Assembly: GCA_021647705.1 (NCBI GenBank)
Contig: JAKIUF010000005.1
Span: 43,936-107,935 of the forward strand
DNA: 64,000 bases
Reading direction: 5' to 3'
Origin: Gammaproteobacteria bacterium
GTDB taxonomy: Bacteria; Pseudomonadota; Gammaproteobacteria; SZUA-152
The notes beneath the pieces are model-generated. The model was not told where the DNA came from. It worked only from the letters and a program-made list of their open reading frames with translations, and did no database searches. The translations under genes were made by a program, and so were the position numbers. The stretch's first letter is position 1. Every line of letters starts with the position of its first letter. This document shows positions 296 to 39,233 of this stretch, piece by piece.

Positions 296-3214
296 TTATG
301 GTGGTGGCGCATCAAAAGTATTATTGAAATATTGTGCGCCAATATCTAACCATTCGTACAACAAACGCAATTCAGCGGGTGTTAACAAACCCATGTGTTC
401 CACAGTGCCTACCCCTGTTGTCGTAAAGCGATTAAAAAATCTTGAGCTGGCAGCTGCGCCTCTTACCCGCATAGACGGAGCTTCTTCAGCAGGGATATTT
501 CGCGTGACCATAATAGGAATTGGCAGCATCGTAACCGGATCAATGACCTGTACGATTTCCCCAGTCACCGGGTCAACCATCGTTTCAAACAACAGCTCAT
601 TAGTTACCGGGTCGCGCGCTTGCACTTCTTCAGTAACGGGCATCAATGCACCTCCCACTAACTGCCATTGCACTCGATCTTGTACCAATAACTCCTGATA
701 GGATTTAAAACGCTCCGGATCATTATCATTACCCCGCAGCCCATCACTAAGATCCAATTGAGCCATGGGCACCATAGGTGCATTTGCATTGGCGACATCC
801 TGATTACTGTGACAAGAAGTACAGGTGCGATCCAGCATTCCTGTCGCAAAATCAGTACGTGGTAAACTCCACAACGGATGAATACTGTCTTCGTAATTAA
901 TGATGGTACGACAAGTGAAGTCCCATTTTGCTCCTGCTACCGCACCGGGAATACATTGTGCAGTTGCCGGTATGCCGGCTGCCATGGCAACATCAAGTTC
1001 GGAATAGCGCAAGCTAATATCATCAGGGATAGGGCTCGCTTTTGCCCACACATCAAAGAACACTGGATTGGGACTCGGACTGAGCTCAGGGCAACCTGTG
1101 TCTGTTTTAAGCAAAACACCATTTGCATTAGTGCAACTGACTCGGATACGCGCCTGCGCCATGGTTTCACCATCCTGCGGGAAAATGGTCTCATCAACCG
1201 TTAGCGTCATCGGGTCATCCGTCGAAGTACCCGGAAAAGTCCAATCCGGCACGGTCAGTTCCGCACCAATATTGAGCGCCGTTGGCGCATCGGTGTAACC
1301 ATGAGGCACCGGTAACGCGGGTGCTGTGACACTGTGAGTATGGCAACCATTACATTCCAGAGTTTCGCCCCCGCGTACCTGTATCCAGTTCAGGTGTCGC
1401 CCGCCAATGCGACGGCCATCTTTATCCACTACCTGAATTGACAAGGGCACATTGGCGGGCACTTTAGTCATCACCGAACCATCCGGCTCGATGGTGGCAT
1501 AACCAATAATCTCACGCATGCCGCCGCGCCGACCACCGGCACCAAAGGCCACGCCAGCATCAAACTCTGTAGCAGCATCCTGGCGGTCCGGTATCGCCGT
1601 TGCTTTGACGATACGCAAATAGCGTGCATTACGTTGATCCGCGCCCGTTCTGGTGGGATTAGCCATTTCGGCCAGTGTAATGACCGGGTTGCTCATATTA
1701 TCTAAGGTACCCAGCGCATTAAAATTACCATCAAAATCGTAAACACTACGAATATGCAAAATACCGACAAACTCTTCTTCCGCCAGCGCCTGATCCAGCT
1801 CCAGACCAACAACTTTATCAATCAACACCGCTGGACGCGGGCGTGGTGCCAACACGACAGGTTCATCAATGATGATATTTTCTTCAGGGATAAGCACTGG
1901 CAGCTGGGTATCCTGTGCAAAGTCGTATACATAAATACCGTATAACGGAAAAGCCTCTACAGCATCGGTAGGAATGACGCTCGGACAAGGCGTAGGAGCA
2001 GCATCGGGAATGCGCAAACCGTCTGAATCTGTAAGATGCAGACGGCATTGCGACCAGCTCACTAACGCGCGGTTGCTGCCATCCGCAAGCGGGTACACTG
2101 AACGATACCGGCCAGCCGGTGAAATGCTGTCATCGGTACGCACATCCTGATTAATCGCCAGCACTTGCCCCGGACCCGCCAACATACCCAGGTTGGGTAC
2201 CGTTGGTTGATTAATATCGGCGTAGTCCGCTACATTGATGGCCACTGGTGCGCCACCACCGCCCGAACCATTAAATGGTTTCAGCATGGTCAGCACACGT
2301 CCATCATTCAGTTCACGCGGATCCAGGAATTGTACTGTACTGCCATCGGTGCCCACGTCGGCATCATGTAAACCATAAAGCGCCTTCAGTTCGGTGCCAT
2401 CGGGATGTATCGTGTACAGCCTGATGGCACTGCGCGCCCTCGCACCATCCCAGCGTGAGAAAATAATCTCACCACTGCTTAATACACTGGCATCCAGGTC
2501 GTGGCTTTGGTTGAATGAAATCTGTTTGATGTCAGTGCCATCGGCATTCATCACATGCAATACCACGGCGGGTTCACGCAAATCTTCATCAAAAGGCGAA
2601 AACTGGCTTTTGCCCTCATTGAGCAAGGATTCTCGTGTCGTCACCGAGGCATTGGAGCTAAACACAATGCGCCCGTCAGGCAGGTAATGCGGGGCAACAT
2701 CATCACCCTTGGCGGCGGCAAAATCATCGGCGATAACCCGGGTCGGACAACCGCCTACTTCGGTGTCATATTCGTAGAGATTCCACTTGGGCACATCATT
2801 GCCATTGGTGAGGTCTTCCAGGCGCAAAGAAAAAATCAGTTTGGTGCCATCGTAAGAGGTTTCCAAGTCTCGTACATCACCCGTGCCAACACCATCATCA
2901 TCAATATCGGTAATACACAGGGTAATGTTTCGTTCCGCGGCGGATATCGAGGCACGCTCCCGTAGGTAAACATCCCCACCTTCATTAAAATCTGTGGCCT
3001 CACGCACGTCAGGATCCACGGGTATCGTTTCGTTGGTATCCTGATCTACTTCCGTAGGCACAGGGCGCTTGACATAGGCAATGGAAAAATCAGGTACGGT
3101 TTGATCCTGATTCTCTGCTCCACAACCCGCTAACAACAGTACAGCTACTGCAAAACACAGCATCCGCACACGTAATAGCTTCTTATATTTCAATGAATCA
3201 CTGCCAAAAAACAT
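296..3214 (-). CDS. Large lipoprotein (972 aa) with two CXXCH c-type heme-binding motifs and repeated beta-propeller-like (TolB/WD-like) segments
   Basis: Lipobox LLLAGC near the N-terminus. Motifs CNGCH and CTSCH in the C-terminal third. Repeated '...DGT.LIFS / DGRIVFSS' strand-like segments. Long uninterrupted ORF. Confidence 0.55.
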   Translation of the reverse strand: MFFGSDSLKYKKLLRVRMLCFAVAVLLLAGCGAENQDQTVPDFSIAYVKRPVPTEVDQDTNETIPVDPDVREATDFNEGGDVYLRERASISAAERNITLCITDIDDDGVGTGDVRDLETSYDGTKLIFSLRLEDLTNGNDVPKWNLYEYDTEVGGCPTRVIADDFAAAKGDDVAPHYLPDGRIVFSSNASVTTRESLLNEGKSQFSPFDEDLREPAVVLHVMNADGTDIKQISFNQSHDLDASVLSSGEIIFSRWDGARARSAIRLYTIHPDGTELKALYGLHDADVGTDGSTVQFLDPRELNDGRVLTMLKPFNGSGGGGAPVAINVADYADINQPTVPNLGMLAGPGQVLAINQDVRTDDSISPAGRYRSVYPLADGSNRALVSWSQCRLHLTDSDGLRIPDAAPTPCPSVIPTDAVEAFPLYGIYVYDFAQDTQLPVLIPEENIIIDEPVVLAPRPRPAVLIDKVVGLELDQALAEEEFVGILHIRSVYDFDGNFNALGTLDNMSNPVITLAEMANPTRTGADQRNARYLRIVKATAIPDRQDAATEFDAGVAFGAGGRRGGMREIIGYATIEPDGSVMTKVPANVPLSIQVVDKDGRRIGGRHLNWIQVRGGETLECNGCHTHSVTAPALPVPHGYTDAPTALNIGAELTVPDWTFPGTSTDDPMTLTVDETIFPQDGETMAQARIRVSCTNANGVLLKTDTGCPELSPSPNPVFFDVWAKASPIPDDISLRYSELDVAMAAGIPATAQCIPGAVAGAKWDFTCRTIINYEDSIHPLWSLPRTDFATGMLDRTCTSCHSNQDVANANAPMVPMAQLDLSDGLRGNDNDPERFKSYQELLVQDRVQWQLVGGALMPVTEEVQARDPVTNELLFETMVDPVTGEIVQVIDPVTMLPIPIMVTRNIPAEEAPSMRVRGAAASSRFFNRFTTTGVGTVEHMGLLTPAELRLLYEWLDIGAQYFNNTFDAPPP

Positions 3215-3499: not shown

Positions 3500-3530
3500 G
3501 GTTTTAGCCGCTCACTGCACGTATAATCCG
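3500..3530 (+). promoter_or_regulatory. Putative sigma70 promoter of the gcv operon (perfect TATAAT at 3522-3527)
   Basis: TATAAT lies about 20 nt upstream of the first riboswitch aptamer. The -35 element is weak (GGTTTT/TTTAGC region). Confidence 0.35.
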
Positions 3531-3545
3531 CAGTTCAATGGAATA

Positions 3546-3736
3546 TCACTGCGGGAGAGTGTGGTTCTCTGATTATTATTTGTCAGGGTAAAAAACCACC
3601 GCCGAAGGCGCAACCGCCCGGAATCGCTCAGGCAACCGGACCGCAGACCGACAATCGTTGACTCTGGAGAGAGACTGAAGCTACAGGCGTCAGTCCGCCG
3701 AAGGGGCTAAAGCTCTCAGGCACCACGGACAGAGGG
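3546..3736 (+). promoter_or_regulatory. Tandem glycine riboswitch (two aptamers) in the gcvT leader
   Basis: Aptamer 1: GCGGGAGAG...CACCGCCGAAGGCGCAACC...CTCAGGCAACCGGACCGCAG. Aptamer 2: CTCTGGAGAGAG...GTCCGCCGAAGGGGCTAAAGCTCTCAGGCACCACGGACAGAGG. Both carry the conserved GGAGAG / CCGAAGG / CTCAGGCA glycine-aptamer blocks. They sit immediately 5' of gcvT. Confidence 0.8.
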
Positions 3737-3799
3737 GTGGCAAAACAGCACAATTGCTGTTTGAAAACCCGTGTCCATAAAAACCAGAGGTCTACACGT

Positions 3800-4939
3800 A
3801 TGTCATCATCACCGTCAGCAACACTTTCGCCAGCACGCACCCCACTGTACGCGCAACATCTTGTCGCCGGGGCAAAAATGGTGGATTTTGCTGGCTGGAA
3901 AATGCCCATCCACTACGGCTCACAACTCGAAGAACATCATCAGGTGCGTAATGACGCAGGCATGTTTGATGTCTCCCACATGGTGGTGCTGGATCTCACG
4001 GGTAGCGGCATCACTGATTTTTTGCGTTATCTGCTAGCTAATGACGTGGCACGGATCCAAACTCCTGGCAAAGCACTGTATTCCTGTCTGCTTAACGAGC
4101 GCGGTGGCGTTATTGATGATCTCATCATCTATTTTATGGCTGAGGACAGGTACCGCATGGTGGTTAACGCCGCCACCCGCGACAAAGACCTAGCCTGGGT
4201 TCGTCAGCAAGCTTTAAACGCGAATAATAATAAAAAATGCAACGTGGAAATCCACGAGCGCGACGACCTGGCAATGATCGCCGTACAAGGTCCCAATGCG
4301 CGCGATAAAGCCCACGCCGCACTGGGTACAGACATCGATGCCGCCCGCGAACTCAAGCCCTTTTTTGCCGCAGATTGCAATGACAGCAAGGGCAACCTGT
4401 TTGTTGCCCGCACCGGTTATACTGGCGAAGATGGCTACGAAATCATCCTGCCCGCCGAACAGGCAGGTGCAACCTGGGAGGCACTACTGGCCTCCGGAGT
4501 CAAACCCATCGGTCTCGGTGCGCGTGACACCTTGCGACTGGAAGCCGGTATGAATCTGTACGGCCAGGATATGGATGAAGACATCAGCCCGCTGGAAGCC
4601 GGGCTCAGCTGGACAGTGGCCTTCACGCCGGAAGAGCGTGACTTCATCGGTCGCGCCGCTCTAACCCAACAAAAAACCGATGGTCCGGCAAACAAACTCG
4701 TTGGCCTGATCCTCGAAGATCGCGGCGTATTACGCGCCCACCAAAAAGTCATCACCGAACACGGCGAGGGCGAAACCACCAGCGGTAGTTTTTCCCCCAC
4801 CTTGGGTAAATCCATTGCCCTGGCCCGCGTACCCACTGCCGCAACTGAGCACTGCCAAGTAGAAATACGTGGTAAACAATTGGCCGCACGCATCGTAAAA
4901 TACCCCTTTGCCCGAAAGGGTAAAAGTCTGTTTGATTAA
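3800..4939 (+). CDS. gcvT: Glycine cleavage system T protein (aminomethyltransferase)
   Basis: N-terminus [41 protein letters not shown]... is typical of GcvT. Followed by gcvH and gcvP. The ATG at 3800 was chosen inside the longer tool ORF (3737). Confidence 0.9.
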
Positions 4940-4986: not shown

Positions 4987-5382
4987 ATGAGCAATGTGCC
5001 AAGCGAATTAAAATACACCAAAAGTCACGAGTGGATTCGTACCGAGGTCGACGGCAGCATTACCGTAGGCATTACCGATCATGCGCAGGAATTGCTGGGT
5101 GACATGGTCTTTATCGAATTGCCAGAAACCGAGGCCAATTACACCGCCGGTGATGAATGCGCTGTCGTAGAATCCGTAAAAGCGGCTTCTGATGTATACA
5201 GCCCAATCACCGGTGAAGTGATTGCCATCAATGAAGAATTGGCCGACGCCCCCGAAACTGTCAATGAGGATGCCTTTGATACCGGCTGGATGTTCAAAAT
5301 GCAGCCCGAAGACGCCGGTGAAATTGACGAGTTGATGAGCGCTGAAGCCTACGCCGAATTGATTGCCGAAGAAGAGCATTAA
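4987..5382 (+). CDS. gcvH: Glycine cleavage system H protein (lipoyl carrier)
   Basis: [18 protein letters not shown]...[17 protein letters not shown] contains the lipoyl-lysine motif region. 131 aa. Confidence 0.9.
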
Positions 5383-5465: not shown

Positions 5466-6824
5466 ATGCCTTTTATTCCCCATACTGAAAATGACACTCG
5501 CACCATGCTCGACACCATCGGTGCCGATTCCATCGAAGACCTGTTTGATGAAATACCCGCTGAATTGCGTGCCCAACCCTTGAGCGAAGTCCCCGCAGGC
5601 CGAAACGAAATGGCCGTCTCCCGACTGCTACAGGCACGCGCGGCACAAGACATACAGGCGTTGTCATTTTTGGGGGCGGGTGCTTACGAACATCATATCC
5701 CTGCGGCAGTGTGGGAACTGACCACCCGTGGCGAATTCTACACCGCTTACACTCCCTATCAGGCCGAAGCCAGTCAGGGAACTTTGCAGTTATTGTATGA
5801 ATTCCAGACCATGATGACCGAACTCACCGCCATGGATGTCTCCAACGCTTCCTTGTACGACGGTGCCTCAGCACTGGCTGAAGCAGTATTGATGGCAGTA
5901 CGTGCCAATCGAAAATCCAAAAGCAAGCGTATTTTGATACCCACCACGGTAAATCCTACTTATCGCAGCGTGGTCAACACTATCGTGCGTCATCAGGGCA
6001 TCCAACTGGAATTAGTAAATTATGATACACAGAGCGGATACATCGACCCAGCCAGCCTGCCAACCGATCCCGGTGACATCACTGCACTGGTGATCCCACA
6101 ACCCAACTTCTTTGGCGCACTGGAAGATGTCGATGCTCTCACCGACTGGGCACAAGCCCACGGCGCACTGGTGATCGGCGTGGTCAACCCCACCGCCATG
6201 GCATTGATTACACCGCCCGGCGAATGGGGTAACGGTACAGGTGCCGATATTGTTTGTGGTGAAGGCCAACCGCTAGGCGCACCGTTGTCTTCCGGCGGCC
6301 CCTATTTTGGTTTTATGTGCTGTGCGCAAAAACATGTGCGGCAAATGCCTGGGCGTATCATTGGTCGCACCGACGATATCGAGGGAAAAACCGGTTATGT
6401 ACTGACACTGCAAGCCCGCGAGCAGCATATCCGCCGCTCCAAGGCCACTTCCAACATTTGCACCAACCAGGGACTACTGACCACAGCAGCCACTATCTAT
6501 TTGTCCTTAATGGGCCCGGAAGGATTACGCCAAACTGCCGAGCACAGCCACGCCAATACACACAAACTGGCAGAAAAACTGTGCGCGATTAAAGGTGTCG
6601 AAAAAATATTTAACCGCCCCTGTTTTCACGAAACTGTATTGCGTCTGCCTAAACCAGCCAATGAGATATTGAGCGCGCTGGATACACAGGGAGTGCTGGG
6701 TGGTTTTGATCTGTCTCAGACTTATCCTGAGCTGGGTAATGCCATCTTGGTCTGCGCGACAGAAACCAAAACCGACAATGATCTTGAGCAATACGCCACG
6801 GCACTGCGCAATGTTCTTGCATAA
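5466..6824 (+). CDS. gcvPA: Glycine dehydrogenase (decarboxylating) subunit 1
   Basis: [35 protein letters not shown]... is typical of GcvPA. 452 aa. Confidence 0.9.
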
Positions 6825-6867
6825 CTTTCTCACAACCAACAGCGCAAATTAAACACGCCCTCAGCAT

Positions 6868-8760
6868 ATGCCATCCTACGAAAAAACCCACATTATTCAC
6901 CCGGCAGAAAAAGCACCAAGCCGCAGCGAATTATTGCGTTGGGCTGGCTGGTTTTTTCTTGCCAACAGTTTTATTGCACTGTTGATTGCACTGCGATACC
7001 TGACGGCGGTGCAATTTCCTGACGGTGATTACACCGTAACGTTCAGCATACTGGCCTTCATTGGTCACTTTGCCTCGATGGGATTCATCGGGGCAATATT
7101 GTTATTTCTGCCCATTCTGCTTTTCCCGCGCCGATCATTTATTTTTGGCTTAGGCATCGTTATCGCACTCATTTTTATCCTGGGAATCACCCTGGACACG
7201 TTCATTTTCAGTCAATACCGTTTTCACTTCAACGGCATGGTAATGAACCTGTTGCTCGGCGGTGCTGCTGAAGAAATTTTCACCTTCTCCGCTTTTTTAT
7301 GGACGCTGCTGGGTCTGTTTGTGTTAGCCCTGATTGGCTTTCAATTCTGGTTAAGCCGACGCATATGGTCTTTTGTGCTGGCCACACCTCATCGCCCCTT
7401 CGGTTACATTGTTGGTTTTTTACTATTCACAATATTTTTTGCGCAAAACGTTTTATATGCCTGGGCCGATGCTAATACCTATACGCCCATCACCAAACAA
7501 ATCCGTTTTTTACCGGCTTATAAACCTCTCACTGCTGATCGATGGTTTATTGCTCGCGGTTGGGCAGACCCCAAAAACGGTGCCAAACTGGCACATATCG
7601 ATACTAGCAGCTCACTTGACTACCCAACGCAGCCGCTAACCTGCACAGCGAAAAACACGCCATTTAACATCGTTTATATTGTGGTGGACTCCTGGCGTTT
7701 TGATACTCTCACAGCTCGAGCGACGCCCAATATTTACCGTTTTGCAAAAGATGCCCTAGTGTTTAACAACCACTACAGCGGAGCCAATTCCACTCGCACC
7801 GGAATCTTCACGCTGTTTTATGGCCTACCCGGCACCTATTGGCATGCCATGCTGGCAGAACAACGTGGCGCAGAATTTATCAATCAACTCATTGTTCAAG
7901 ATTACCAGCTGGGTATTTTTGCCAGTGCCAAGCTCTATAGTCCGGAATTTGATCGCACCGTATTTGCCAACGTTAAAAATCTGCGCCTGCAATCCAAGGG
8001 GAATTCACCTCGCCAACGCGACCAAAATATCCGCGATGAGTTTCTTGTCTTTCTTGATAAACAGATGGAAGAAAAAAACAGGCGATCTCCCTTCTTTGGT
8101 TTTCTGTTTTTTGACTCCCCGCACGGCTACGATTTCCCCAGCGACTATCCTTTGACCTTTGAGCCCAGTCTGAAAACTGTCAACTACATCGCGCTTAACA
8201 ACGACTATGATCGCACGCCATTTTTTAACCGCTACAAAAACTCCGTGCATTTTGTCGATAGTCTTATCGCACCGATTCTCGACAAATTAAAGACTGACAA
8301 GCTATTGGACAATACAATAGTCGTCATCACCGGCGACCATGGCCAGGAATTCAATGACAACAAGCTGAATTACTGGGGACACAACAGTAATTTTTCACCT
8401 TGGCAAACACAGGTACCAATGGTCATTCACTGGCCCGGAAAAGACGCACAGCATATCAACAAACAAACCAGCCATTTTGATATTTCACCGACACTGATGA
8501 AGGATGTACTGGGTTGCAGCAATGACCTGCACGACTACAGCAGTGGCAACCACTTACTCACTGAAGAGCCCGGGCCTTACCTTTTACTTAGCAACTATAA
8601 CCAGTTTGCGGTCATGGAAAAGGACCGCCTCACCGTGGTAGATGAATTTGGTAATGTCGATATTCTGGACAAACATTACCGCAACATTCCCGATGCCAAA
8701 TTATCCAATACACTCATGCTCTCGGTGATGGATGAAATGAGCCGCTTTTATAAAAAATAA
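6868..8760 (+). CDS. YejM/PbgA-like inner-membrane protein (N-terminal 5-TM domain plus periplasmic sulfatase/alkaline-phosphatase-superfamily domain)
   Basis: Hydrophobic N-terminal third with multiple TM segments. Sulfatase-fold signatures follow ([18 protein letters not shown]). Lower GC than the flanking gcvP genes. Confidence 0.6.
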
Positions 8761-8810
8761 ACGTAAGCTGTTTTTATAAAAATACACTTGATACACAACA
8801 GGCAAAACAC

Positions 8811-10277
8811 ATGCACGATACACACACACCCTTGATTTTTGAACATTCCCGACCAGGCCGGATAAACAATACACATACCCAACGCAGCACCGCTCAAACG
8901 AGCATCATTCCTGACGCCATGCTGCGTAAAACACCGCCACGCCTACCGGAAGTGTCAGAAATGGATGCCGTACGTCACTATACCCGCCTGTCGCAAAAAA
9001 ACTTTTCCATCGACACCCATTTCTACCCGCTGGGTTCCTGCACGATGAAACACAACCCGCGCGCCTGTAATACGCTAGCCATGCTACCCGGCTTTCTCAG
9101 TCGCCACCCACTGTCTCCAGAGCAGCATGGCCAAGGCTATTTGAGCTGCATGTGGGATTTGCAGGAAATTCTCAAAGACGTGACCGGCATGACGGCCGTT
9201 TCCCTCACCCCCATGGCCGGGGCCCAAGGTGAGTTTGCTGGTGTCGCCATGATACGTGCCTATCACGATGCCAATAATGACACCACACGCAGTGAAATTC
9301 TGGTACCCGATGCAGCCCACGGCACTAATCCTGCCACGGCCACTATGTGTGGTTATGCCACTAAAGAAATCCCCACCGACGCCAATGGTGACGTGGATGT
9401 CGATGCACTTAAAGCCGTCGTAGGCCCGCAAACGGCAGGCATCATGCTCACCAACCCCTCTACGCTAGGTGTGTTTGATCGACGCATTAAAGAAATTGCC
9501 GGGATCGTACACAAAGCAGGAGGATTGCTCTATTACGACGGAGCCAATCTCAATGCCATACTCGGCAAGGTCAAACCCGGCGATATGGGTTTTGATGTGA
9601 TTCACATGAACTTGCACAAAACATTTTCTACCCCGCATGGCGGTGGTGGACCGGGAGCCGGGCCCGTGGGTGTCAGCGAACGCCTCAAACCCTTTATGCC
9701 AATTCCCGTTGTGGGAAAAAATGACAATGGTTATTACTGGCTGACAGAAAAAGATCTTCCACAAAGCATTGGCCGTCTTTCCGCCTTCATGGGCAATGCC
9801 GGAGTATTGTTACGCGCCTATATTTATGCCTTGCTGCTAGGGCGTGAAGGCATGACACGGGTTGCGGATTACGCCACACTCAATGCCAATTACCTAATGG
9901 CAAAACTCAGTCAGGCCGGTTTTGACATGGCTCTGCCTGAGCGACGTGCCACTCACGAATTTATTCTAACCCTGAAACGGCAGGCTAAAGAGCAAGGCGT
10001 TACCGCCATGGACTTTGCCAAACGATTGCTGGATTATGGCTTCCATGCACCCACCACTTATTTTCCATTGATCGTGCCGGAGTGTCTGCTCATTGAGCCA
10101 ACAGAATCGGAATCCAAAGAAACACTGGATGCCTTTGTGGAGGCCATGGCAGCAATACAAAAAGAAGCAGAATCTGATGCGCAAACGTTAAAAGGTGCCC
10201 CATATACCATGCCCATGCGCCGTTTGGATGATGTTAAAGCGGCACGCGAACTTGATTTGCGCTACAAACAGTCATGA
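8811..10277 (+). CDS. gcvPB: Glycine dehydrogenase (decarboxylating) subunit 2
   Basis: [18 protein letters not shown]-dependent motifs, 488 aa. Confidence 0.9.
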
Positions 10278-10636
10278 GCAAACCCGGTAATACAGGACTG
10301 AAGCGCGTCATCAAGGCCGCGGGCTATTCCTGGGCCGGTCTCAAAGCCGCCTTCAAACACGAAGCCGCCTTTCGACAGGAACTGGCACTATGCCTTGTGC
10401 TGATTCCAACTGGATTGTGGCTGGGAGAAAGCGGTATTGAGCGCGCCCTGCTCGTCGGCAGCCTGCTGCTAGTGTTAATCATCGAATTGTTAAACTCAGC
10501 CATCGAGGCTGTGGTGGATCGTTTTGGTGGAGAACAACATGAATTGTCAGGGCGCGCCAAAGATATTGGCTCGGCTGCTGTGTTTATTGCCTTGTTAAAT
10601 ACCGTGGTGGTTTGGGTTTTGTTATTGATCCCATAG
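10274..10636 (+). CDS. dgkA: Diacylglycerol kinase
   Basis: [36 protein letters not shown]... is the classical DgkA N-terminus with 3 TM helices. Its start overlaps the gcvPB stop (ATGA). Confidence 0.85.
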
Positions 10637-10720
10637 GATATTACGTTTTCGGATTATCAATATAGCTCTTTCTCCTTTCAAATAACCCGCGACATTTGAA
10701 ACCGCATATTTTGGCGGAAT

Positions 10721-10905
10721 CCTGATGCATATACCCGTAGCGATTGAGATTTAGGTCGTGTGCACGCCCTATTTGCTCCATGGCTGCGTTGTTGTCCTTG
10801 CAATAGAGTGACTATTACGCGTCATTTCGCCTTGCCATGAAACAAATATGACGCACACTTAAACCTAACTCCCAAACGCTACGGGTATATATGAATATGA
10901 TCAGG
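10721..10905. repeat. 185-bp MITE-like element with ~36-40 bp imperfect terminal inverted repeats
   Basis: Left end CCTGATGCATATACCCGTAGCGATTGAGATTTAGGT. Right end (reverse complement) CCTGATCATATTCATATATACCCGTAGCGTTTGGGAGTTAGGT. No ORF inside. Confidence 0.4.
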
Positions 10906-11288
10906 CATCAAGCAGTCTTCTTTAATAAGCACATCTTTTTCACCTGACTAATTTATGTAGCATCTCACCCGTGTTTTTCAATTGATTGATGGGGCTCCCT
11001 ATTTATTAAAAGTCCGAAATATCGTTTAAAAAAACCAAATCTTATAACCATAACGCTTACGGTAAATCCAGAATCGCACTAATCATTCTCTATACCACTG
11101 ATCAACCATGAAGTTTTTCAAATAAATACAAGATGGCCTGATTCTTGTATATCTGTTTATTATTATCTGTAAAAAAACATTACCCAATGAAACTTATAAG
11201 CCTTTATTTCGTATCACTTACAGCATTTCTTATTGCGGTTATTTTTCTGAAAATGATCATGTCAGCTATAACTATTAATTAGATACAA

Positions 11289-12650
11289 TTGATGTTAACC
11301 GAAGTAATTACTGCTGAATCAGACCTTGTCAATACATTATCACGCATACAATTCGGCATTACAGCCAGCTATCACATTATTTTCCCCAGCCTTTTGATTG
11401 GCTTGTCTACGCTACTCACTTATCTTTACGGCAAGTGGCTTCAAACAAACAATCATGTGTACCTTGTCAGCTATGAATTCTGGCTAAAATTAGTCGCTAT
11501 CGTATATCTACTCGCGGCTATCACAGGCGTCGCGCTTTCTTCACAAATAGATAATGTCTTTGGTGGTTTTTACCAGCAGTTGGAAAGCGCTTTATCTCCT
11601 ATACGGCAAATCGAATTGATTCTTGCTATCGTTTTAGAGGGCGGCTGCATAGGTGTAATGCTTTTTTATGCCCGCACTCAACGATCTTACGGCCGTTTTT
11701 CCGCAACTATTTTATTCAATATTGGAATCTTCTTAACGGCATTATTTGTTATCAGCAGAAATTCATGGATGAATACACCAGCAGGCATCGAGTGGATTGA
11801 CAATGAAATTCATGTACTAAATTATATCGATATTCTTTTTAACCCAAGCTTCCCATTGCGTTATCTGCATATGATTGTGGCGGGATTAATGGCTACCAGT
11901 TTTGTTGTTATGGGAATTGCGGCCTTTAGGTTACTTAAATATAACCATGATATCGTTGCCATTAAAAGCTTTAACATTGGATTCAAATCGGCATTAGTAT
12001 TTACGATATGCCAATTCATTATTGGTGACCTACACGGCCTTAACGTATACAAACATCAACCATTAAAAATAGCCAGTATGGAAGGGCACTGGGAGACCAA
12101 AAAAGGGAGTGATTTTATTCTTTGGGCAAACCCCAGTGAAGAAAATGAACTCAATCACCACGAAATAAAAATACCGTATGCATTAAGCATAATCCTTACT
12201 CACGAAATTAATGGCGAAGTACTAGGCATAAAGGAGATGCCAAAAAATGAACGGCCTAATATAAGCCTCGCGTTCTATACCTTTCGGATAATGCTTGCCT
12301 TGTCACTACTGATGTTAGCCATGGTGTTAATCGGTGTAATCAAATCAAAATCAAACCCGCTCCATCAGCAGAAATGGTTTTTAAGAATAGCATTATTTAT
12401 GTCACCTTCTGGCTTAATCGCAATTATTGCCGGATGGATTGTCGCCGAAGTTTCCCGACAGCCCTGGGTAGTTTACGGCATGATTAAAACCAGCCAAACA
12501 ATTAGCGCTCACTCAGCCGAGCAAATAATCACTTCGATGATCACCTTCTCACTCCTGTATCTGCTTTTATCGATTGCTGCAATAATATTTGTCGGCAAAG
12601 TTATTCTTAATGGAAACGTACAAACAAAATATAGGATAGGAAGCGATTAA
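11289..12650 (+). CDS. Cytochrome bd-type quinol oxidase subunit I-like protein (CydA family), apparently orphan (no cydB)
   Basis: N-terminal [23 protein letters not shown] matches the CydA signature. Nine or more TM segments. The gene is AT-rich (~36% GC) relative to its neighbours. No subunit-II gene follows. Confidence 0.7.
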
Positions 12651-14431
12651 TGTTTGGCGGCGATTACATCAGTTATATTGATGCCAAGTTTTATCATACG
12701 TGAACGTAAAGTATTGGGGTGCATGGACAATACTGCAGCGGCACCTCTTGTGCCAGAAATAATACCGCGAGTATGCATTAAAATGCGTTCAATGTGTGCG
12801 CGTTCTACTTCTGCCAGTGTCAGTAGCTGTTGAGAATCAGCCCCCGCTACTTCTAGCCTCTTTGGGATAAGACTTATCACATCGACACTGGACATTGTTG
12901 CCAATATTGCGGCACGCTCGATAACATTCCTCAGCTCGCGGATATTCCCTGGCCAGTCATATGCCTCTAACATTGCCAAACCATCACCGGAAAACCCGGT
13001 AAGCGTCTTACCAAATTTGCGTGCTGCACAACTGAGAAAATGTTTCGCCAACAATGCAACATCTTCGTGACGCTCACGTAATGCCGGGGCTTCTATCGGG
13101 AATACATTTAAACGATAATAGAGGTCTTTTCGGAAGCTGCCTTCTTCGACCAACTGAGCCAAGTCACGATTCGTTGCAGCGATAATCCTGACATTAACAC
13201 GGATCAGTTTTTCACCACCAAGGCGCTCGAACTCTTGCTCTTGCAGCACACGCAAGAGTTTTACTTGCGTATCTAACGGCAATTCACCAACCTCATCAAG
13301 AAACAAAGTGCCACCATCAGCAAGCTCAAAGCGCCCTCTGCGGCGATCATGCGCACCAGTAAAGGCTCCCTTTTCATGACCAAAAAGCTCACTCTCTACC
13401 AGGCTTGATGACAACGTCCCACAATTCACCTTTACCAGCGGGTGATCACGCCGCGGGCTATTTTCATGTACTGCATGGGCGATTAATTCTTTACCTGTCC
13501 CGCTTTCTCCTAATACCAGAACGCTCGCATCCGTCGGTGCGACATGTTCAATTTTTTCCAGCATTCGTCGAACAGGTAACGATGTACCGACAACCTCACC
13601 AAAAGCCAACTCTTCTCGAATTTCTTCCTGTAAGTAATTGTTTTGCTCTTCAAGCTGCTCTTTTAATTTTGCTACCTCATCAAATGCTTCAAGAAGATCT
13701 TTTTTAGCCTTTTTTTGCGCAGTGGTATCTTTAAAAACCGCAACAGCTCCCACTAATGTTCCATTCTCATAGATGGGAGTACTGGTGTATTCCACCGGAA
13801 AACAGGTACCATCTTTACGCCAAAATACCTCGCCTTCAATATGATGGATTACACCATCTTTTATTGCGGCATAAATTGGACATTCTTCCTGGGGGTAGGG
13901 CGTTCCATCTTCGTGACTATGATGATGAAGATAATGAATTGAGTGACCAATCATCTCTGCGGCACTCCAACCTGTCATGCGTTCTGCGGCTGGATTAACA
14001 AACGTTGCCTTACCTTCGAGATTAAGCCCGTAAATGCCTTCGCCAGCGGCGTTCAGAATCGACTCAGCATGGTGCTTAAGCACCTTTATGTCAGCTTCGG
14101 ATTTTTTATACTGGCTGATATTAGCCGCAATGACATCCACACCAACAACACTCCCACTCTTATCGTTCACGGGCGTCATCGTAAAAAGAAATAGGCGACT
14201 GGCAATACATTGTTCAAACGCCTGAACCTCGCCATTTAATGCTTTTTGACAGTTTTCAATTAATTCAGTGGAGATGCCAAGGCTGTGCAGCCGCTGCCCC
14301 AGTATTGATGCACCATCATAGGGAAACGGCCATTTTTGTCCTGCAAACTCGATAACACACATATCATGACCCACCCTCCAATAAAAACTTTGGGCGATCT
14401 CTTTTAGCTCATTGCTCATCACGATTTTCAC
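12647..14431 (-). CDS. Sigma-54-dependent transcriptional activator with tandem PAS sensor domains (NtrC/Fis family enhancer-binding protein)
   Basis: Central AAA+ sigma54-interaction domain ([21 protein letters not shown]-type motif region). C-terminal HTH. N-terminal PAS-like repeats. Confidence 0.85.
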
Positions 14432-14802
14432 TTTTACGTTACTGATGTTACGCAGAATTCAGCTATGGGTTCATTATTCGAGAGCGTGGCATCAGTTGCT
14501 TTAAAAAAGACACTTTACTGTCTATTCGTCACCCAATAGAGCATCAAGCCTAACGAAATATCGTGCAAAAGCCAAACAAAGACATAAACCTTCTTTTCTT
14601 GTCACTATATTTCGTACATTTACTATATATCGTAACACTCTGTACGCACCGTAATTCATATTGCATCCGCACGAAACATCTATCCTGTTGAATTAAAAAG
14701 AAATTCATTACAAATAAAAAGATGGCTCATTTTTTGCCTTATCACTGCGAAGGGCTGCACTTAAATAGTGTGCTACCCGCACTAAATCATCTGGAAAACT
14801 CA

Positions 14803-15849
14803 ATGACAAAAGATATGAGCCTTAACATTACCACCGCCCTATTATTGATAATAAGCACTCACACACTAGCAGGCTTCGAACCACTACCACTTATTGCTCC
14901 AGAGCCATCAGACAACCCAAGCTCTGTCGCCAAAATAAACTTAGGGAAACAACTTTTTTTTGACCCTCGCCTGTCACTTGACGGAACAATATCCTGCAAT
15001 ACTTGCCACGATGTTTCTGGTAACGGCACCGATAGCGCCGCAGTCTCAACGGGTATCGGTGGACAAAAAGGAGAGCGTTCTGCACCCACCATATGGAACG
15101 CCGCCTTCTTAAGCTCACAATTTTGGGATGGGCGCGCCGCTACGCTTGAGGAACAAGCAAAAGGTCCGATTCTCAACCCTATTGAAATGGGAATGCCACA
15201 TCAGGAGGCTGCTGTTGAGCGTATTGCGGCAATCCCTGGATACCGAAAACAATTCGCCGCGATCTTTGATGAAAAAAAACCCGTAACTTATGACAATATC
15301 GCCAAAGCAATCGCGGCCTATGAGCGCACACTCATCACACCCAACAGTCCGTTTGATCGTTTTTTAAGAGGGGATAAAACAGCGCTGTCTGCACAAGCAC
15401 AGAAAGGCATGAAGGAGTTCGAAGAAATTGGCTGTATTCTTTGCCATAAAGGGCCAGCTCTCGCAGGACCATCGACGCTGAAAAAAGGTGAAATTTATTT
15501 TCAATGGTTCCCGGCCATGCCCAGCGACTACGATGAAAAATACAAACTTAAAGAAGACCTTGGATACAATCAGGGAAATGATAAAGCCCCTACAGGTAAA
15601 TGGCGTGTACCCACTCTGCGTAACATCGCCCTCACAGCACCATACTTTCATAACGGCTCAGTAAAAACATTAAATGAAGCCGTGCGAGTAATGGCCCGCG
15701 CACAACGCAATCGCGTACTAACAGATCAACAAGCTGCAAACCTTGTCGCATTTCTTGAGAGTCTGACAGGTGAATTTGTTGTACAAAAAAGACCTGAACT
15801 TCCGCCAATGGGCGATGAGGATCAACAATCAACGCTTTCAAACTATTGA
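14803..15849 (+). CDS. Di-heme cytochrome c peroxidase (CcpA/MauG family)
   Basis: Signal peptide, then two CXXCH motifs (CNTCHD and CILCHKG) with CCP-typical spacing. The ATG at 14803 was chosen inside the longer tool ORF. Confidence 0.85.
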   Translation: MTKDMSLNITTALLLIISTHTLAGFEPLPLIAPEPSDNPSSVAKINLGKQLFFDPRLSLDGTISCNTCHDVSGNGTDSAAVSTGIGGQKGERSAPTIWNAAFLSSQFWDGRAATLEEQAKGPILNPIEMGMPHQEAAVERIAAIPGYRKQFAAIFDEKKPVTYDNIAKAIAAYERTLITPNSPFDRFLRGDKTALSAQAQKGMKEFEEIGCILCHKGPALAGPSTLKKGEIYFQWFPAMPSDYDEKYKLKEDLGYNQGNDKAPTGKWRVPTLRNIALTAPYFHNGSVKTLNEAVRVMARAQRNRVLTDQQAANLVAFLESLTGEFVVQKRPELPPMGDEDQQSTLSNY

Positions 15850-15966
15850 AATAAGCTCCACAGAGCAGAGATGGGGGGCACAGACACATGAACAAAATAA
15901 AAAGAGGAAAGCCTGTGATTTACAATAAAATACAGTCAAACAGCCATGACCTTTGAGGTGTAGACA

Positions 15967-17169
15967 TCAAAACCCTAACATCACGCTTAGAACTAACCTT
16001 GAGTCAGATGCAAATGATTTTAATGCTGGATCATTATCGACATGGGAAAATTTATACAGGTTTGCTTCAACAAACCATTGATGCTTGATACGTGTTTTGG
16101 CTCGAAGATCCCAAAGAGTTGAATCATAATCCAGGTCACGGGTTAATCGCAGCTCATATTCGGTGCTGTTTAAGTCATTTACAGCAAGGCGAAGACCAAG
16201 AAAAATATCATTCTGAAAAGGCGTTATAGGCGAGCTACTATCAGATTTTCGTCCATCATAATAATACTCACCATACAATGTCAGCGCATTTTTGCTGGAA
16301 CCCATACGTGGAAATTCACGTTCCAGACCAATACCCAAACCGGTAAAATTATCATCACTCGTAGAGCGATAAGTTGACTCCAGCTTCACCAACAATTGCC
16401 CTTTGATCCATAACAGTTCAAGCCCGGCTTGTTCTATCCGGGCATAATTGGGTTGTAATGTGATGACATGAGCAATGCCATCCAGATTTGGTGTAAAATA
16501 AGGTGTCCGGGCATGGCCTTTGTAATAAGAGACAGCAAACTCCAGGGATGCCAGCATTTGTGAAATACGCACTGCGGAAGAAAGTGTATTTTGTCCCTTT
16601 TCAAACTCTGCATCAGAATATGCAAATGCTGAGTTCCTGAACCGGTCTTTCCTTTCAGCCAAACGCTCTTCCCGGCTATAAGGCAATAACCATACATCAG
16701 CCCTACCATTATCCAGTAACCAGGAAAGCCTCCCTCCTGGAATACCTTGCTTTATGTCCCCCTGGAAATCCTCAACGCGATCTCTCGGGTTCAGTATGTC
16801 CACCGGGCTGAATGCTTCCAGCACACCCCAGCGTTCCATTAACATACCGCCAGACATTTCAAGCTGTGAAGCGTAGTAACTCAATGCAAGTTCACGCACA
16901 TCACCCCGCCCGGATTTATTCGCCGCAGGATGATAACGGCCAAAAACAGACACATTGATGTCGGTATTACGATTTATCTGACCGTTATAATCCAAGGTTG
17001 TAGCAAGCGCATACTGACTTTGACGATCAGACTGTTCACTGAACAGCGGGGCTTCAGCATAATACTCATACCGGCCTTCCACCTCTCCTTTAAATGTTGC
17101 TCCATTGGCTATCGAATATAGTGCTAACATCGAAAAAACCAATAATACAGAAGCGTGGCCTTTCTTCAT
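15967..17169 (-). CDS. Outer-membrane beta-barrel protein (DUF1302-like), last gene of the PKS/MMPL operon
   Basis: Signal peptide. Alternating amphipathic beta-strand pattern rich in Y/G. C-terminal ...SVMLGF ending in Phe. Sits directly downstream of the LolA-like gene. Confidence 0.55.
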   Translation of the reverse strand: MKKGHASVLLVFSMLALYSIANGATFKGEVEGRYEYYAEAPLFSEQSDRQSQYALATTLDYNGQINRNTDINVSVFGRYHPAANKSGRGDVRELALSYYASQLEMSGGMLMERWGVLEAFSPVDILNPRDRVEDFQGDIKQGIPGGRLSWLLDNGRADVWLLPYSREERLAERKDRFRNSAFAYSDAEFEKGQNTLSSAVRISQMLASLEFAVSYYKGHARTPYFTPNLDGIAHVITLQPNYARIEQAGLELLWIKGQLLVKLESTYRSTSDDNFTGLGIGLEREFPRMGSSKNALTLYGEYYYDGRKSDSSSPITPFQNDIFLGLRLAVNDLNSTEYELRLTRDLDYDSTLWDLRAKTRIKHQWFVEANLYKFSHVDNDPALKSFASDSRLVLSVMLGF

Positions 17170-17171
17170 TA

Positions 17172-17951
17172 TTATTTGGACCATCTTCTCAGCGCGGTGG
17201 GATTAAGGTCGCTTTCCTTGAAGTCTGCACCAAACTCATAATCAGACCAAATAATCGTCGAGACAGCACCGGTCCTCAGGTTGCTCATCACCATTTTCAT
17301 CGGTCGCCAATACTTACCTGCAAATTTTTTATAGTCATAAAAATGCATTTCTTTTAACGGCCTTCCGTTACTATCATGATATAACAACCGCAAGGGATGA
17401 TAGATTTCCTGGTCCACCCACTCTTTTATCATTTTGTAACTGGAATAAGGATAAGCAGGTGTATTTTCAACGACAAATGTTGGTTTGCCATCCAGCAGCT
17501 CATCTTTGATGTATTTGTAGGTGTATTTTTTGACTTCCCAGGTGCCAATATCTTCAAATGACAATTCACTACCTGCAAAACTTCCACTTTTATCTCTGGC
17601 GGCAAGGCGTTTAGTACGACGAAGTGCGGGCATATAAATCCATTGGTCATCCGGCTCCAAACCATGTGAGTAAGTTAAAGAGACCATTCCGGCCAGGTCT
17701 CTGGGCTCCAGAAAATTGACCAGCCGTTTGTCGCCGTCATCAGGAACTTCAATTGTATACATTTTAAATTTTCGTTCACTGGTAAACCCTCCCGGCCCTT
17801 CCAGGGTCATTATTCCCGATACCGCATAGTTACCAAATCCGGAATCTCGACGCTGTGTTTCTTCTGCAATTTCCAAACCCCGGTCAATATCGGCAAAAAC
17901 CGAAAATGTTGCCAGCAGACTTGCTCCAAATAACAGTGCTCGTTTTTTCAT
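17172..17951 (-). CDS. Periplasmic LolA-like (DUF1329-type) lipid-binding protein
   Basis: Signal peptide MKKRALLFGASLLATFSVFA. Size and sequence pattern match the LolA-like proteins that accompany MMPL exporters. 1-nt overlap with the MMPL gene (ATGA). Confidence 0.5.
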   Translation of the reverse strand: MKKRALLFGASLLATFSVFADIDRGLEIAEETQRRDSGFGNYAVSGIMTLEGPGGFTSERKFKMYTIEVPDDGDKRLVNFLEPRDLAGMVSLTYSHGLEPDDQWIYMPALRRTKRLAARDKSGSFAGSELSFEDIGTWEVKKYTYKYIKDELLDGKPTFVVENTPAYPYSSYKMIKEWVDQEIYHPLRLLYHDSNGRPLKEMHFYDYKKFAGKYWRPMKMVMSNLRTGAVSTIIWSDYEFGADFKESDLNPTALRRWSK

Positions 17952-20239: not shown

Positions 20240-20246
20240 ATTAATT

Positions 20247-21563
20247 TTACACTCCTGCGTAAGCTGTGGTATTCGCCAGTATTCGTTTTAAGGAATCCAG
20301 CGTATAAATAAAGTCTTCCTGTGTATGTTCTGAGGTAATAAAAAAACGAAGACGCGCTTCATTTTCAGGAACCACGGGATACATGACAGCATGGGCAATA
20401 ATGCCAACCTGTTGTAAATCTGACATCAGGTGAACAGCTAACATGCTATCTCCCAACATCACAGGCACTACGGCTGAGGCACCACTCCCTCCTGTATCAA
20501 ACCCCCGTTCTCTTGCCAGTTGGGAAAACTGTCTGACATTATTTTGCAGTCTTTCCACTCGCCATGATTCTTCCAGCATTATTTTTATTGCCCTGTTCGC
20601 GGCAGCGGCAGATGCAGGAGGGAGTCCGGTACTGTACAGAAGCACACCGGGTGCAAAGAAACGCAGCAGTCTTATCATTTCTTCAGAACCACCCAGAAAA
20701 CCACCGCAGCTGGCAAAACTCTTGCTCAGCGTCCCCATAATAATATCAACCTGACTGGCATTAATGTTCCAGTGTTCGCATAAACCCCGCCCGCTTTTTC
20801 CTACCACACCCAATGAGTGAGCCTCATCCACCATCAGCCAACAGTTGTGTTTCTTTTTAAGTTCAACAAGGCGGGGAAGATCTGCCAGATCACCATCCAT
20901 GCTGTAAGCGCCTTCAACAATGATAATTGCTTTTTCATAATTTCCCCGATTCTCATCCAGTAAAGTCGCCAGAGCATCGAAATCATTATGGGGGAAAACA
21001 ATCCGGCGGCTATCAGCCATAACAGCGCCCATAACACCACTGTTATGCATATATTCATCCATAATGATCAGGTCGCGTTTACCCATGAGGTAGCCAATAG
21101 TTGCCACGTTTGTCATATAACCACCCACAGTGGTTACACAACTTTCAAAACCAAACGCATCACACAGGGTGTGTTCCAGCTCCGCATGTATCGCCATCTC
21201 TCCCCCCACCATGCGTGCAGCACCTGCATGTGTCCCATATTGATCGAGAGAGTGTTTGGCGGCATTAATAACGCGCTCATCATTAGCCAGACCAAGATAG
21301 TTGTAACCCGAATAACAAATAAATTCTTTTTTTCTGCTGGTGACCTTGTTGGACAAATGACCGGAGCGCGGCATAAAGTAGGGATTATTCATCCCTTCCC
21401 GTCCATACACATCATCAATTTTTTCAATGATTTTATAATCTGCGGTCTTTGTAACATCCATGGCATGGATACGGGTGTTATCAATACCAGCATCTGTGTT
21501 GATCTTCTTTTTTCCCAAAAACTCGGACTTAAATGATTCTAATAAATCTGCATTCACACTCAT
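20247..21563 (-). CDS. Alpha-oxoamine synthase family PLP-dependent acyltransferase (8-amino-7-oxononanoate synthase / serine palmitoyltransferase-like)
   Basis: Class-II aminotransferase fold. PLP-lysine motif GTLSKSFASCGGFLGG. Start taken at MSVNADLL..., 20 bp downstream of the PKS stop. Confidence 0.85.
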   Translation of the reverse strand: MSVNADLLESFKSEFLGKKKINTDAGIDNTRIHAMDVTKTADYKIIEKIDDVYGREGMNNPYFMPRSGHLSNKVTSRKKEFICYSGYNYLGLANDERVINAAKHSLDQYGTHAGAARMVGGEMAIHAELEHTLCDAFGFESCVTTVGGYMTNVATIGYLMGKRDLIIMDEYMHNSGVMGAVMADSRRIVFPHNDFDALATLLDENRGNYEKAIIIVEGAYSMDGDLADLPRLVELKKKHNCWLMVDEAHSLGVVGKSGRGLCEHWNINASQVDIIMGTLSKSFASCGGFLGGSEEMIRLLRFFAPGVLLYSTGLPPASAAAANRAIKIMLEESWRVERLQNNVRQFSQLARERGFDTGGSGASAVVPVMLGDSMLAVHLMSDLQQVGIIAHAVMYPVVPENEARLRFFITSEHTQEDFIYTLDSLKRILANTTAYAGV

Positions 21564-21582
21564 CAAACATCTCCATATTTTG

Positions 21583-39057: not shown

Positions 39058-39233
39058 TTACGAGACTAAATCACTTCAACTTTCGTTTACGGCCTGCTGC
39101 CTTGCGGCACGTCGTGCTTAACATTTAGGATTACTCCCGCCTGCCCGACGCTTGCTACCCGGTGGCTGACCTGCCTTGCCGGGGCGGGTTTCTCACCCGC
39201 TGGAATAATCGACCTGGCTCGGCCGCACACCCC

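Follow-up and report, generated by a model that had tools for sequence, protein, structure and literature searches.

A sulfatase-fold membrane protein gene and dgkA as putative passengers in a riboswitch-led glycine cleavage operon with an occupied gcvPA/gcvPB junction

Within a 64,000-nucleotide stretch of the genome of a gammaproteobacterium (assembly GCA_021647705.1, contig JAKIUF010000005.1, positions 43,936 to 107,935; hereafter the window) the genes encoding the two glycine dehydrogenase subunits, gcvPA and gcvPB, are parted by a gene for a 630-aa protein with five transmembrane (TM) helices and a sulfatase fold, designated X here. The operon occupies a single strand and reads tandem glycine riboswitch, gcvT, gcvH, gcvPA, X, gcvPB and dgkA (Table 1). 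These open reading frames were found exactly as given in an earlier note, made from the sequence of the window alone, and profile searches confirmed GcvT, GcvH, GcvPA, GcvPB and DgkA; GcvPA and GcvPB are both full length and exceed their equivalog cutoffs. The description of short spacers, common orientation and an overlapping dgkA was likewise accurate, with the stop codon of gcvPB and the start codon of dgkA sharing a 4-nt ATGA overlap. As its start overlaps the gcvPB stop, dgkA is the final gene of the conserved unit, and the DNA 3′ of it differs among relatives with 98–99% identity. DgkA covers positions 1–102 of 102 of the DAGK_prokar profile (PF01219); no model matched it in the NCBIfam profile search. 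A conserved ACAGGCAA located 6–8 nt 5′ of the gcvPB start, in the spacer following X, is likely a ribosome-binding site. The mechanically derived reading frame of gcvT begins with GTG at 3737 inside aptamer 2, and the ATG at 3800 agrees with the deposited call (379 aa in L001). In reverse complement, the window also corresponds to part of contig JAKITR010000009.1 of the metagenome-assembled genome GCA_021647965.1, and its sequence recurs in SRR32233990 and SRR32233993. We slightly favour the interpretation that X and dgkA form an envelope-lipid pair which travels as passengers inside this glycine-riboswitch-led operon.

Gene order in relatives was mapped by tblastn at 83 genome loci and 80 metagenome loci, obtained from a genome scan of one genome per species with an alignment of X homologues as the query (L004–L083) and from a metagenome scan with GcvPB as the query (L085–L164). 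The relatives are annotated as Gammaproteobacteria, Ectothiorhodospiraceae or Thiohalomonadaceae metagenome-assembled genomes (MAGs). Every close relative sampled showed the order gcvT-H-PA-X-PB-dgkA with X 81–99% identical, and the same order was found in a Thiohalomonadaceae MAG (L025) with X 49% identical. A groundwater clade (L014, L015, L016, L017 and L019; X 53–56%) carries PA-tpx-X-PB-dgkA-pfkB, and L071 carries PA-PB-X-dgkA. At L092, the GcvPB of which is 90% identical, X is absent and the order is PA-PB-dgkA-pfkB, with a 164-nt PA-PB spacer in which no remnants of X or tpx were detectable. In a further arrangement (L009, L010, L012 and L018) X lies outside the gcv operon in lipopolysaccharide (LPS)-core clusters of the type waaA-GT9-X-TagF-like, while the X proteins of this group (64–68%) nest within the gcv-linked X clade; the trees of X and GcvPB are unbootstrapped neighbour-joining (NJ) trees. 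The comparison of gene order proposed in the earlier note thus gave a divided answer: the position of X is conserved among close and some distant relatives, and X is absent or moved in others.

Among the loci of the wider lineage (GcvPB 72–79% identical) the order gcvT-H-PA-tpx-PB, with dgkA and/or pfkB behind it, predominates. The tpx gene occupies the PA/PB junction at about 60 of about 95 related riboswitch-led gcv loci, and direct adjacency of gcvPA and gcvPB is the minority arrangement; the expectation that split P-subunit genes are adjacent as a rule therefore fails in this lineage. The junction Tpx is a thiol peroxidase of about 165 aa (NCBIfam equivalog, 248 bits versus 123), for which the dihydrolipoyl group of GcvH may possibly serve as reductant, a candidate rationale for its location. 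A search for a relocated tpx elsewhere in the window and in L001 gave no match. The X-bearing loci occupy neighbouring clades on the GcvPB tree, and dgkA follows gcvPB in many related loci even without X. Altogether tpx, X, dgkA, pfkB and lipA were found as passengers of riboswitch-led gcv operons. The last of these, encoding lipoyl synthase, lies between the glycine riboswitch and gcvT in some relatives (L071 2155-3063; L146 1664-2524) and is a functionally sensible passenger because GcvH is lipoylated. In the groundwater clade, G+C-rich palindromes (cccttccccctgcaagggggaagg) resembling repetitive extragenic palindromic elements were seen in the X-gcvPB and gcvPB-dgkA spacers (L014 7176-7365, 8851-8964; L019 9114-9331). 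We conclude that the gcvPA/gcvPB junction is a long-standing permissive site for passenger genes in this lineage, that the linkage of dgkA to gcvPB is older than the arrival of X, and that X is one of several passengers, added in a sub-clade. No description of the gcvPA-tpx-gcvPB order was found in the literature searched, and lineage-wide interruption of gcvPA and gcvPB by passenger genes appears undescribed in the searchable literature.

Downstream of dgkA, the ancestral neighbours are a pfkB-family kinase gene and S2, which encodes a second sulfatase-fold membrane protein; both are displaced in the window. The genes gcvPB-dgkA-pfkB-S2 are contiguous in L007 and L092, and L006 retains dgkA-pfkB up to the contig end, which places S2 ancestrally two genes after dgkA. 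Identification of the pfkB gene as RfaE/HldA of the ADP-heptose pathway would have strengthened the link to LPS and was rejected, the best match being a generic nucleoside/ribokinase (rfaE_dom_I 51.7 versus 345 bits). The distribution suggests a history in which the ancestral order would have been PA-tpx-PB-dgkA-pfkB, the junction already holding tpx, with dgkA (with or without pfkB and S2) after gcvPB. An X-type gene, normally residing in LPS-core clusters, would then have been recruited beside gcvPB and dgkA; the intermediate PA-tpx-X-PB-dgkA would survive in one clade, and loss of tpx in the window clade would have yielded PA-X-PB-dgkA. Subsequently X would have moved behind gcvPB (L071), returned to an LPS-core cluster (the L009 group) or been lost (L092). 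This history of gains and losses is largely shown, and its order is a parsimony argument.

Table 1. Features of the gcv-X-dgkA locus and of loci compared with it. Positions refer to the window unless a locus is named.
Feature	Position	Strand	Evidence or remark
TATAAT hexamer, candidate operon −10	3522..3527	+	read from sequence; 15 nt 5′ of aptamer 1
Tandem glycine riboswitch (aptamer 1 3542-3653; aptamer 2 3654-3742)	3542..3742	+	Rfam RF00504
Expression platform	3743..3799	+	8-bp hairpin AAACAGCA/UGCUGUUU without U-run, then AGAGG before ATG 3800
gcvT (aminomethyltransferase)	3800..4939	+	NCBIfam GcvT 489.5 bits vs 300 cutoff
gcvH (lipoyl carrier H protein)	4987..5382	+	NCBIfam 183.6 bits vs 117
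gcvPA (glycine dehydrogenase subunit 1)	5466..6824	+	NCBIfam equivalog 620.9 bits vs 364
gcvPA-X spacer	6825..6867	+	43 nt, unstructured, without terminator
X, 630 aa: DUF3413 five-TM and periplasmic alkaline-phosphatase-superfamily domain	6868..8760	+	Pfam/NCBIfam, alignment, AlphaFold
X-gcvPB spacer	8761..8810	+	50 nt, A+T-rich, without G+C hairpin
gcvPB (glycine dehydrogenase subunit 2)	8811..10277	+	NCBIfam equivalog 740.7 bits vs 441
dgkA (integral-membrane diacylglycerol kinase)	10274..10636	+	Pfam DAGK_prokar 126.7 bits
pfkB-family kinase, former dgkA neighbour	28619-29551	+	gene order in relatives
S2, 662-aa LtaS/OpgB-like sulfatase-fold membrane protein	29642-31630	+	weak matches to LtaS and to phosphoglycerol transferase
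tpx examples	L095 2516-3010; L097 5470-5970; L014 4685-5281		between gcvPA and gcvPB
DAGK_cat kinases	L026 6307-7185; L027 4193-5059; L028 5785-6657; L031 11914-12780		
DAGK_cat kinases, continued	L032 1847-2713; L034 2172-3038; L073 9845-10612		

The lower GC content of X, which the earlier note had mentioned, was confirmed for total GC (0.46 versus 0.52–0.54 for the gcv genes) when base composition was profiled across the operon, but not for GC at third codon positions (GC3), which is 0.52 in X and 0.52–0.56 in its neighbours. Moreover, with a window GC of 0.47 it is the gcv genes that lie above average, and X is near the mean. The agreement of GC3 between X and its neighbours holds in the window and at twelve orthologous loci covering a GC3 range of 0.52–0.86. 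The ratio of nonsynonymous to synonymous substitution rates (dN/dS) of X against three orthologues is 0.05–0.06, no different from that of the gcv genes, with dS values from 0.8 to more than 2, and gene order was retained beyond synonymous saturation (dS above 1.2–2). The lower total GC of X is an effect of amino-acid composition, and the gene is an old, ameliorated and selectively maintained resident: GC3 equal to that of the neighbours, a dN/dS of about 0.05 and a gene order outlasting synonymous saturation all argue against a foreign origin. A recent horizontally acquired insertion interrupting the operon, to which the total GC and the patchy distribution of X-type genes might point, was rejected on GC3 at the 13 loci and on dN/dS and is extremely improbable; X retains its orthologous position even where protein identity has dropped to 49%, it matches the mean GC of the window, and no mobile-element genes or repeats flank it.

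The two spacers bordering X gave no indication of separate transcription. Their predicted folding is no better than that of shuffled sequence (z +1.06 for gcvPA-X, z −0.27 for X-gcvPB), and no terminator-like sites were found in them; in relatives with PA-X adjacency the gcvPA-X spacer measures 21–82 nt, and the spacers at L025 are 21, 29 and −1 nt. Promoter-like matches between 3.2 and 11.4 kb were fewer than expected (8 versus 11.4 ± 3.3 in shuffles). A promoter/terminator pair isolating X, which according to the earlier note would speak against its proposal, was looked for by promoter and terminator scans and by folding and was not found. A terminator candidate inside X at 7070-7096 (11-bp perfect hairpin with a U-rich tail, −17.4 kcal/mol, z −4.3) was judged a chance occurrence because synonymous changes destroy the hairpin in relatives 81–97% identical to X (e.g. 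L013, L004 and L005). Short unstructured spacers, the lack of an isolating promoter/terminator pair and the gcvPB/dgkA overlap argue that X and dgkA are transcribed together with the gcv genes, which we consider likely. Internal promoters are common in long operons, and a weak sigma-70-like match lies inside X at 8294-8321; X could have its own promoter in the 3′-terminal part of gcvPA, and gcvPB one located in X, leaving the neighbours without common regulation. The number of promoter-like matches below the shuffle level and the absence of a terminator after gcvPA or X make this improbable, and read-through from upstream would occur despite such promoters.

The riboswitch aptamers (59.8 and 48.7 bits versus a gathering score of 32) abut gcvT directly upstream, and glycine riboswitches head the gcv operons at 21 of 21 related loci scanned. 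The TATAAT hexamer upstream of them is perfect, but its −35 element is weak, and the consensus promoter scan therefore did not list it. In the expression platform the hairpin at 3745-3764 has no U-tract and is followed by the Shine-Dalgarno-like AGAGG at about 3787–3791; the minimum free energy is −15.2 kcal/mol (z −1.5 versus shuffles), and no terminator-like site was found on the + strand between 3743 and 3799. Because the platform lacks a U-tailed terminator, control may act on gcvT translation and reach the downstream genes only indirectly. The earlier proposal that X, if co-transcribed, falls under glycine-riboswitch control agrees with the tandem aptamers at the head of the operon, and such control of X is putative.

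Provided that the six genes are transcribed jointly from the riboswitch promoter, X and DgkA would receive the expression level of the gcv operon, and one may ask whether such coupling serves an adaptive purpose. By way of the riboswitch, an excess of glycine could switch on envelope remodelling by X and DgkA (in relatives also by Tpx) alongside glycine catabolism, possibly since excess glycine perturbs peptidoglycan synthesis. Such a circuit would agree with the retention of gene order past synonymous saturation, with X-type genes at two different positions around gcvPB, with the passengers in all 21 riboswitch-led operons sampled and with translational coupling of gcvPB and dgkA. We nevertheless regard it as unlikely: X is absent at L092 although GcvPB is 90% identical, the L009 group keeps X in an LPS-core cluster although it nests inside the gcv-linked clade, and the platform without terminator leaves operon-wide control unestablished. 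The passengers furthermore vary by lineage (tpx, X, pfkB, lipA), suggesting tolerance rather than design, and to our knowledge no biochemical link exists between glycine and the predicted reaction of X. Variable passengers, loss or relocation of X in close relatives and the missing biochemical link favour a view in which X and dgkA hitch-hike on a well-expressed housekeeping transcript over one of a designed glycine-to-envelope circuit.

Domain searches assigned DUF3413 (PF11893, 174.5 bits) and Sulfatase (PF00884, 131.3 bits) to X. The AlphaFold model (mean predicted local distance difference test score 73.6) shows N-terminal helices at residues 19–47, 54–85, 89–117, 142–172 and 177–202 followed by an alpha/beta domain, and its best structural match is full-length PbgA/YejM (6xlp, E 3e-27; TM-score 0.86 on the periplasmic domain; also 6v8q). 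The best PDB sequence match is likewise YejM/PbgA (E 1e-59), the NCBIfam LapC model NF038282 aligns over the full length, no second DUF3413 gene was seen within the window, and the two-domain architecture and the DUF3413 D-x9-H dyad (invariant D110-x9-H120 in X) are shared with PbgA (PMC7018646). These similarities would fit X being the LapC/YejM/PbgA of this organism, a non-enzymatic or weakly phosphatase-active LPS sensor restraining LapB/FtsH-mediated degradation of LpxC. Several results render this quite unlikely. The LapC model scores 290 bits versus a cutoff of 825, and its identity to E. coli LapC is about 26% for X. For X-type proteins, which by annotation come from Gammaproteobacteria, Deltaproteobacteria/Desulfuromonadales-type MAGs, Pedobacter, Verrucomicrobiota and Planctomycetota, identity amounts to 38–67% with X and to only 24–29% with LapC. 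Those of Vibrionaceae, Shewanella and Aeromonadaceae show 39–42% and 27–28%, respectively, which in such near taxonomic neighbours of E. coli is typical of paralogues. LapC stands on a long separate branch of the NJ tree of X homologues. The gene yejL was found beside X-type genes at none of about 80 loci, whereas E. coli has yejL-lapC-proL, and X is dispensable at the gcv position, as its absence at L092 indicates. By locus numbering, the Vibrio cholerae gene vc2041 presumably lies outside the LPS-core cluster of that species. It is this gene that represents the essential DUF3413 gene of V. cholerae (PMC4222735). An X-like protein of L020 (27% identical) was considered as a coexisting LapC and discarded, as it contains Sulfatase only and no DUF3413. 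One X homologue, P0047 (52% identical), carries the name of a Nostocales cyanobacterium, Kaarinaea lacus; its contig probably stems from an associated proteobacterium.

The putative active site separates X-type proteins sharply from LapC. The predicted catalytic residues of X are D274, T309, H419, D490-H491, H505 and H536, situated in the motifs D-[SA]-W-R, N-x-T-R, D-x-P-H, G-D-H-G, W-G-H and H-x-D, respectively. With scattered substitutions, these six motifs (DSWR, NSTR, DSPH, GDHG, WGH and SHFD in X) are kept in essentially all 76 X-type sequences, whereas E. coli LapC has DGLN, TTDN, no DSPH equivalent, AGRG and WSH. Arg451 of YejM was described as the structural counterpart of EptA His453 and LtaS His476 (PMC7576196), and X carries His491, preceded by Asp490, at this position, where LapC has Gly-Arg. 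PbgA was reported to be without the typical catalytic residues of the superfamily (PMC7018646). X thus appears to unite a membrane domain of the PbgA type with a catalytic centre of the EptA/LtaS type; it would be a paralogue of PbgA/YejM architecture that is competent for catalysis, homologous to LapC over its whole length without being its orthologue. The X-type proteins accordingly look like a subfamily distinct from LapC/YejM/PbgA. The earlier note likened X to YejM/PbgA, for which it names regulation of LPS/cardiolipin balance; given the profile score, the identity, the Asp-His in place of Gly-Arg and the missing yejL, X is not considered a LapC orthologue, and transfer of that function to it is unwarranted. 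X also scores far below the cutoffs of the models of known transferases (P_eth_NH2_trans 38.4 versus 500 bits; LtaS 36.9 versus 970; no EptA, MCR, LtaS or OpgB model cutoff was reached). A catalytically complete sister family of PbgA/LapC, as which the X-type proteins may be seen, appears undescribed in the searchable literature, and no characterised X-type DUF3413 enzyme turned up, although none of the searches was directed at such enzymes in particular.

The genomic company of X homologues points to the envelope. Genes for WaaA, a GT9 heptosyltransferase or TagF-like proteins lie within 8 kb of X homologues at about 19 of about 60 non-gcv loci, including the closest non-gcv relatives L009 and L010. 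In the LPS-core clusters of four Vibrionaceae loci (L045, L061, L063 and L068) kdkA, encoding the 3-deoxy-D-manno-oct-2-ulosonic acid (Kdo) kinase (PF06293), is directly 5′ of the X-type gene and ends 28–71 nt upstream of it, a placement which hints that the acceptor could be phosphorylated Kdo. Lipid kinase genes form the second recurrent association. At each of the 13 gcv-linked genome loci of sufficient extent, at most one gene separates dgkA from X, and at seven loci, annotated mostly as Desulfuromonadales/Geobacterales-type MAGs, a DAGK_cat lipid kinase gene (PF00781, E 2e-20) is found 3′ of the X homologue, at a distance of 6–116 nt in six of them and about 2 kb in L031. The DAGK_cat kinase, of soluble type, is not homologous to DgkA and looks like a non-orthologous replacement of the DgkA partner function. 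This recurrent association of X-type genes with two unrelated lipid kinases appears undescribed in the searchable literature. LtaS and OpgB release diacylglycerol from phosphatidylglycerol, and DgkA is needed for its recycling. EptA and MCR generate diacylglycerol as a dead-end product and need DgkA as well; this requirement, co-expression of eptA/mcr with dgkA and operons of the types dgkA-eptA and mcr-3-dgkA have been described (PMC12064563, PMC7559476).

The LPS-core neighbours, the nearby DgkA and the second, unrelated kinase together suggest that X is an envelope transferase releasing diacylglycerol. X would face the periplasm and probably move a phospho-headgroup, phosphoethanolamine or glycerophosphate, from a glycerophospholipid to the LPS inner core, lipid A or another envelope glycan; both headgroups are equally compatible with the evidence. 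The diacylglycerol left behind would be re-phosphorylated by DgkA to phosphatidic acid. A number of points weigh against this interpretation and against the passenger scenario built on it. The substrate and product named for X are predictions. The linkage of dgkA to gcvPB predates X and occurs without X in many loci; DgkA may therefore work independently of X, and diacylglycerol could also come from S2. Some kinases of the DAGK_cat family act on lipids other than diacylglycerol, and the two kinase associations go back to no more than a few independent events in evolution. Trees without bootstrap values underlie the proposed sequence of gains and losses, and the 3′ end of gcvPA or of X may harbour a promoter. 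A bolder version, in which the X-type DUF3413 proteins are a still-enzymatic sister family of the pseudo-enzyme-like LPS sensor PbgA/LapC, widespread and made up of diacylglycerol-generating phospho-headgroup transferases for LPS or the envelope, and X and DgkA are tuned here by the glycine riboswitch, is a long shot; if true, glycine availability would tune envelope modification.

The surroundings of the operon show further peculiarities. Upstream, a 972-aa protein with a hydrazine-synthase-alpha middle domain (PF18582; window 296-3214, − strand) is kept divergently to the gcv operon in L005, L006, L007, L013 and L092 (58–91% identity). Two nested insertions fill the region 3′ of dgkA (10637-28618). 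A block of cydA, a sigma-54 activator gene and a di-haem peroxidase gene (about 10.64–15.9 kb) was found only in the window and L085 and is absent from the relative L086 (GcvPB 99%, X 98% identical). The block at 15967-27753, encoding a hypothetical protein, a TP_0789-like protein, an MMPL protein, an aminotransferase and a 2056-aa type I polyketide synthase, occurs only in the window clade. The left boundary of the insertions is A+T-rich (GC 0.31–0.34 at 10.8–11.4 kb), and cydA (cytochrome bd subunit I, 453 aa; 11289-12650) is not followed by cydB, the next gene lying on the opposite strand. A group II intron D1-D4 match (39081-39202, − strand, 54.1 bits) and a tRNA gene (54940-55012, − strand) are unrelated to the arrangement of gcv genes and X.

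The components of the locus are all of known kinds: a riboswitch-led gcv operon, a membrane transferase of the alkaline-phosphatase superfamily, as X is predicted to be, and DgkA. Their combination indicates that a textbook riboswitch operon can hold changing and unrelated passengers (tpx, X, dgkA, pfkB, lipA) at fixed junctions over long evolution, a situation in which gene-neighbourhood methods would wrongly infer functional coupling of the passengers to glycine. The X-type proteins, a large multi-phylum family with PbgA architecture and a seemingly complete EptA/LtaS-type active site, which recurs in LPS-core clusters and beside two unrelated diacylglycerol/lipid kinases, offer a testable hypothesis. 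Characterisation of one member could reveal a new modification of LPS or the envelope and could show the activity from which PbgA/LapC evolved. For annotation, X-type proteins should not be named YejM or LapC by similarity.

Compared with LapC/YejM/PbgA (E. coli b2188; Salmonella PbgA; PDB 6xlp, 6v8q, 6vat), X has in common the DUF3413 five-helix membrane domain with its D-x9-H dyad, the linker helices and the periplasmic alkaline-phosphatase-fold domain with a C-terminal subdomain. It differs in D490-H491, His419 and WGH, where LapC has Gly-Arg, no equivalent and WSH, and X-type genes are partnered by LPS-core or diacylglycerol kinase genes instead of the yejL-lapC-proL context. With the phosphoethanolamine transferases EptA/MCR, EptB and CptA, X shares a membrane anchor joined to a periplasmic alkaline-phosphatase-superfamily domain, the ligand pattern of acidic residue, Thr nucleophile, Asp-His and His, weak NCBIfam matches over residues 75–539 (E 5e-10) and, as far as EptA/MCR are concerned, the genomic pairing with a diacylglycerol kinase (dgkA-eptA, mcr-3-dgkA). 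The membrane domain of X is of the DUF3413 (PbgA) type rather than the EptA-type N-terminal domain, however, and sequence similarity is confined to the catalytic core. LtaS/OpgB (MdoB) resemble X in the five TM helices plus extracytoplasmic sulfatase-fold domain with a Thr nucleophile and an Asp-His metal site, and the periplasmic domain of YejM was reported to be closest to LtaS (PMC7576196); TagF-like glycerophosphotransferase genes moreover flank X in L009 and L010. Here the matches to X are weak (sequence E 1.6e-9, fold E about 1e-8), the membrane domain is another one, and S2 provides a separate LtaS/OpgB-like gene in the same window. Finally, the operon agrees with canonical riboswitch-controlled gcvT-gcvH-gcvPA-gcvPB operons in its tandem aptamers directly 5′ of gcvT and its four intact gcv genes in the usual relative order, and it departs from them in that gcvPA and gcvPB are not adjacent and non-gcv passengers are embedded, X and dgkA in the window and tpx, pfkB and lipA in its relatives.

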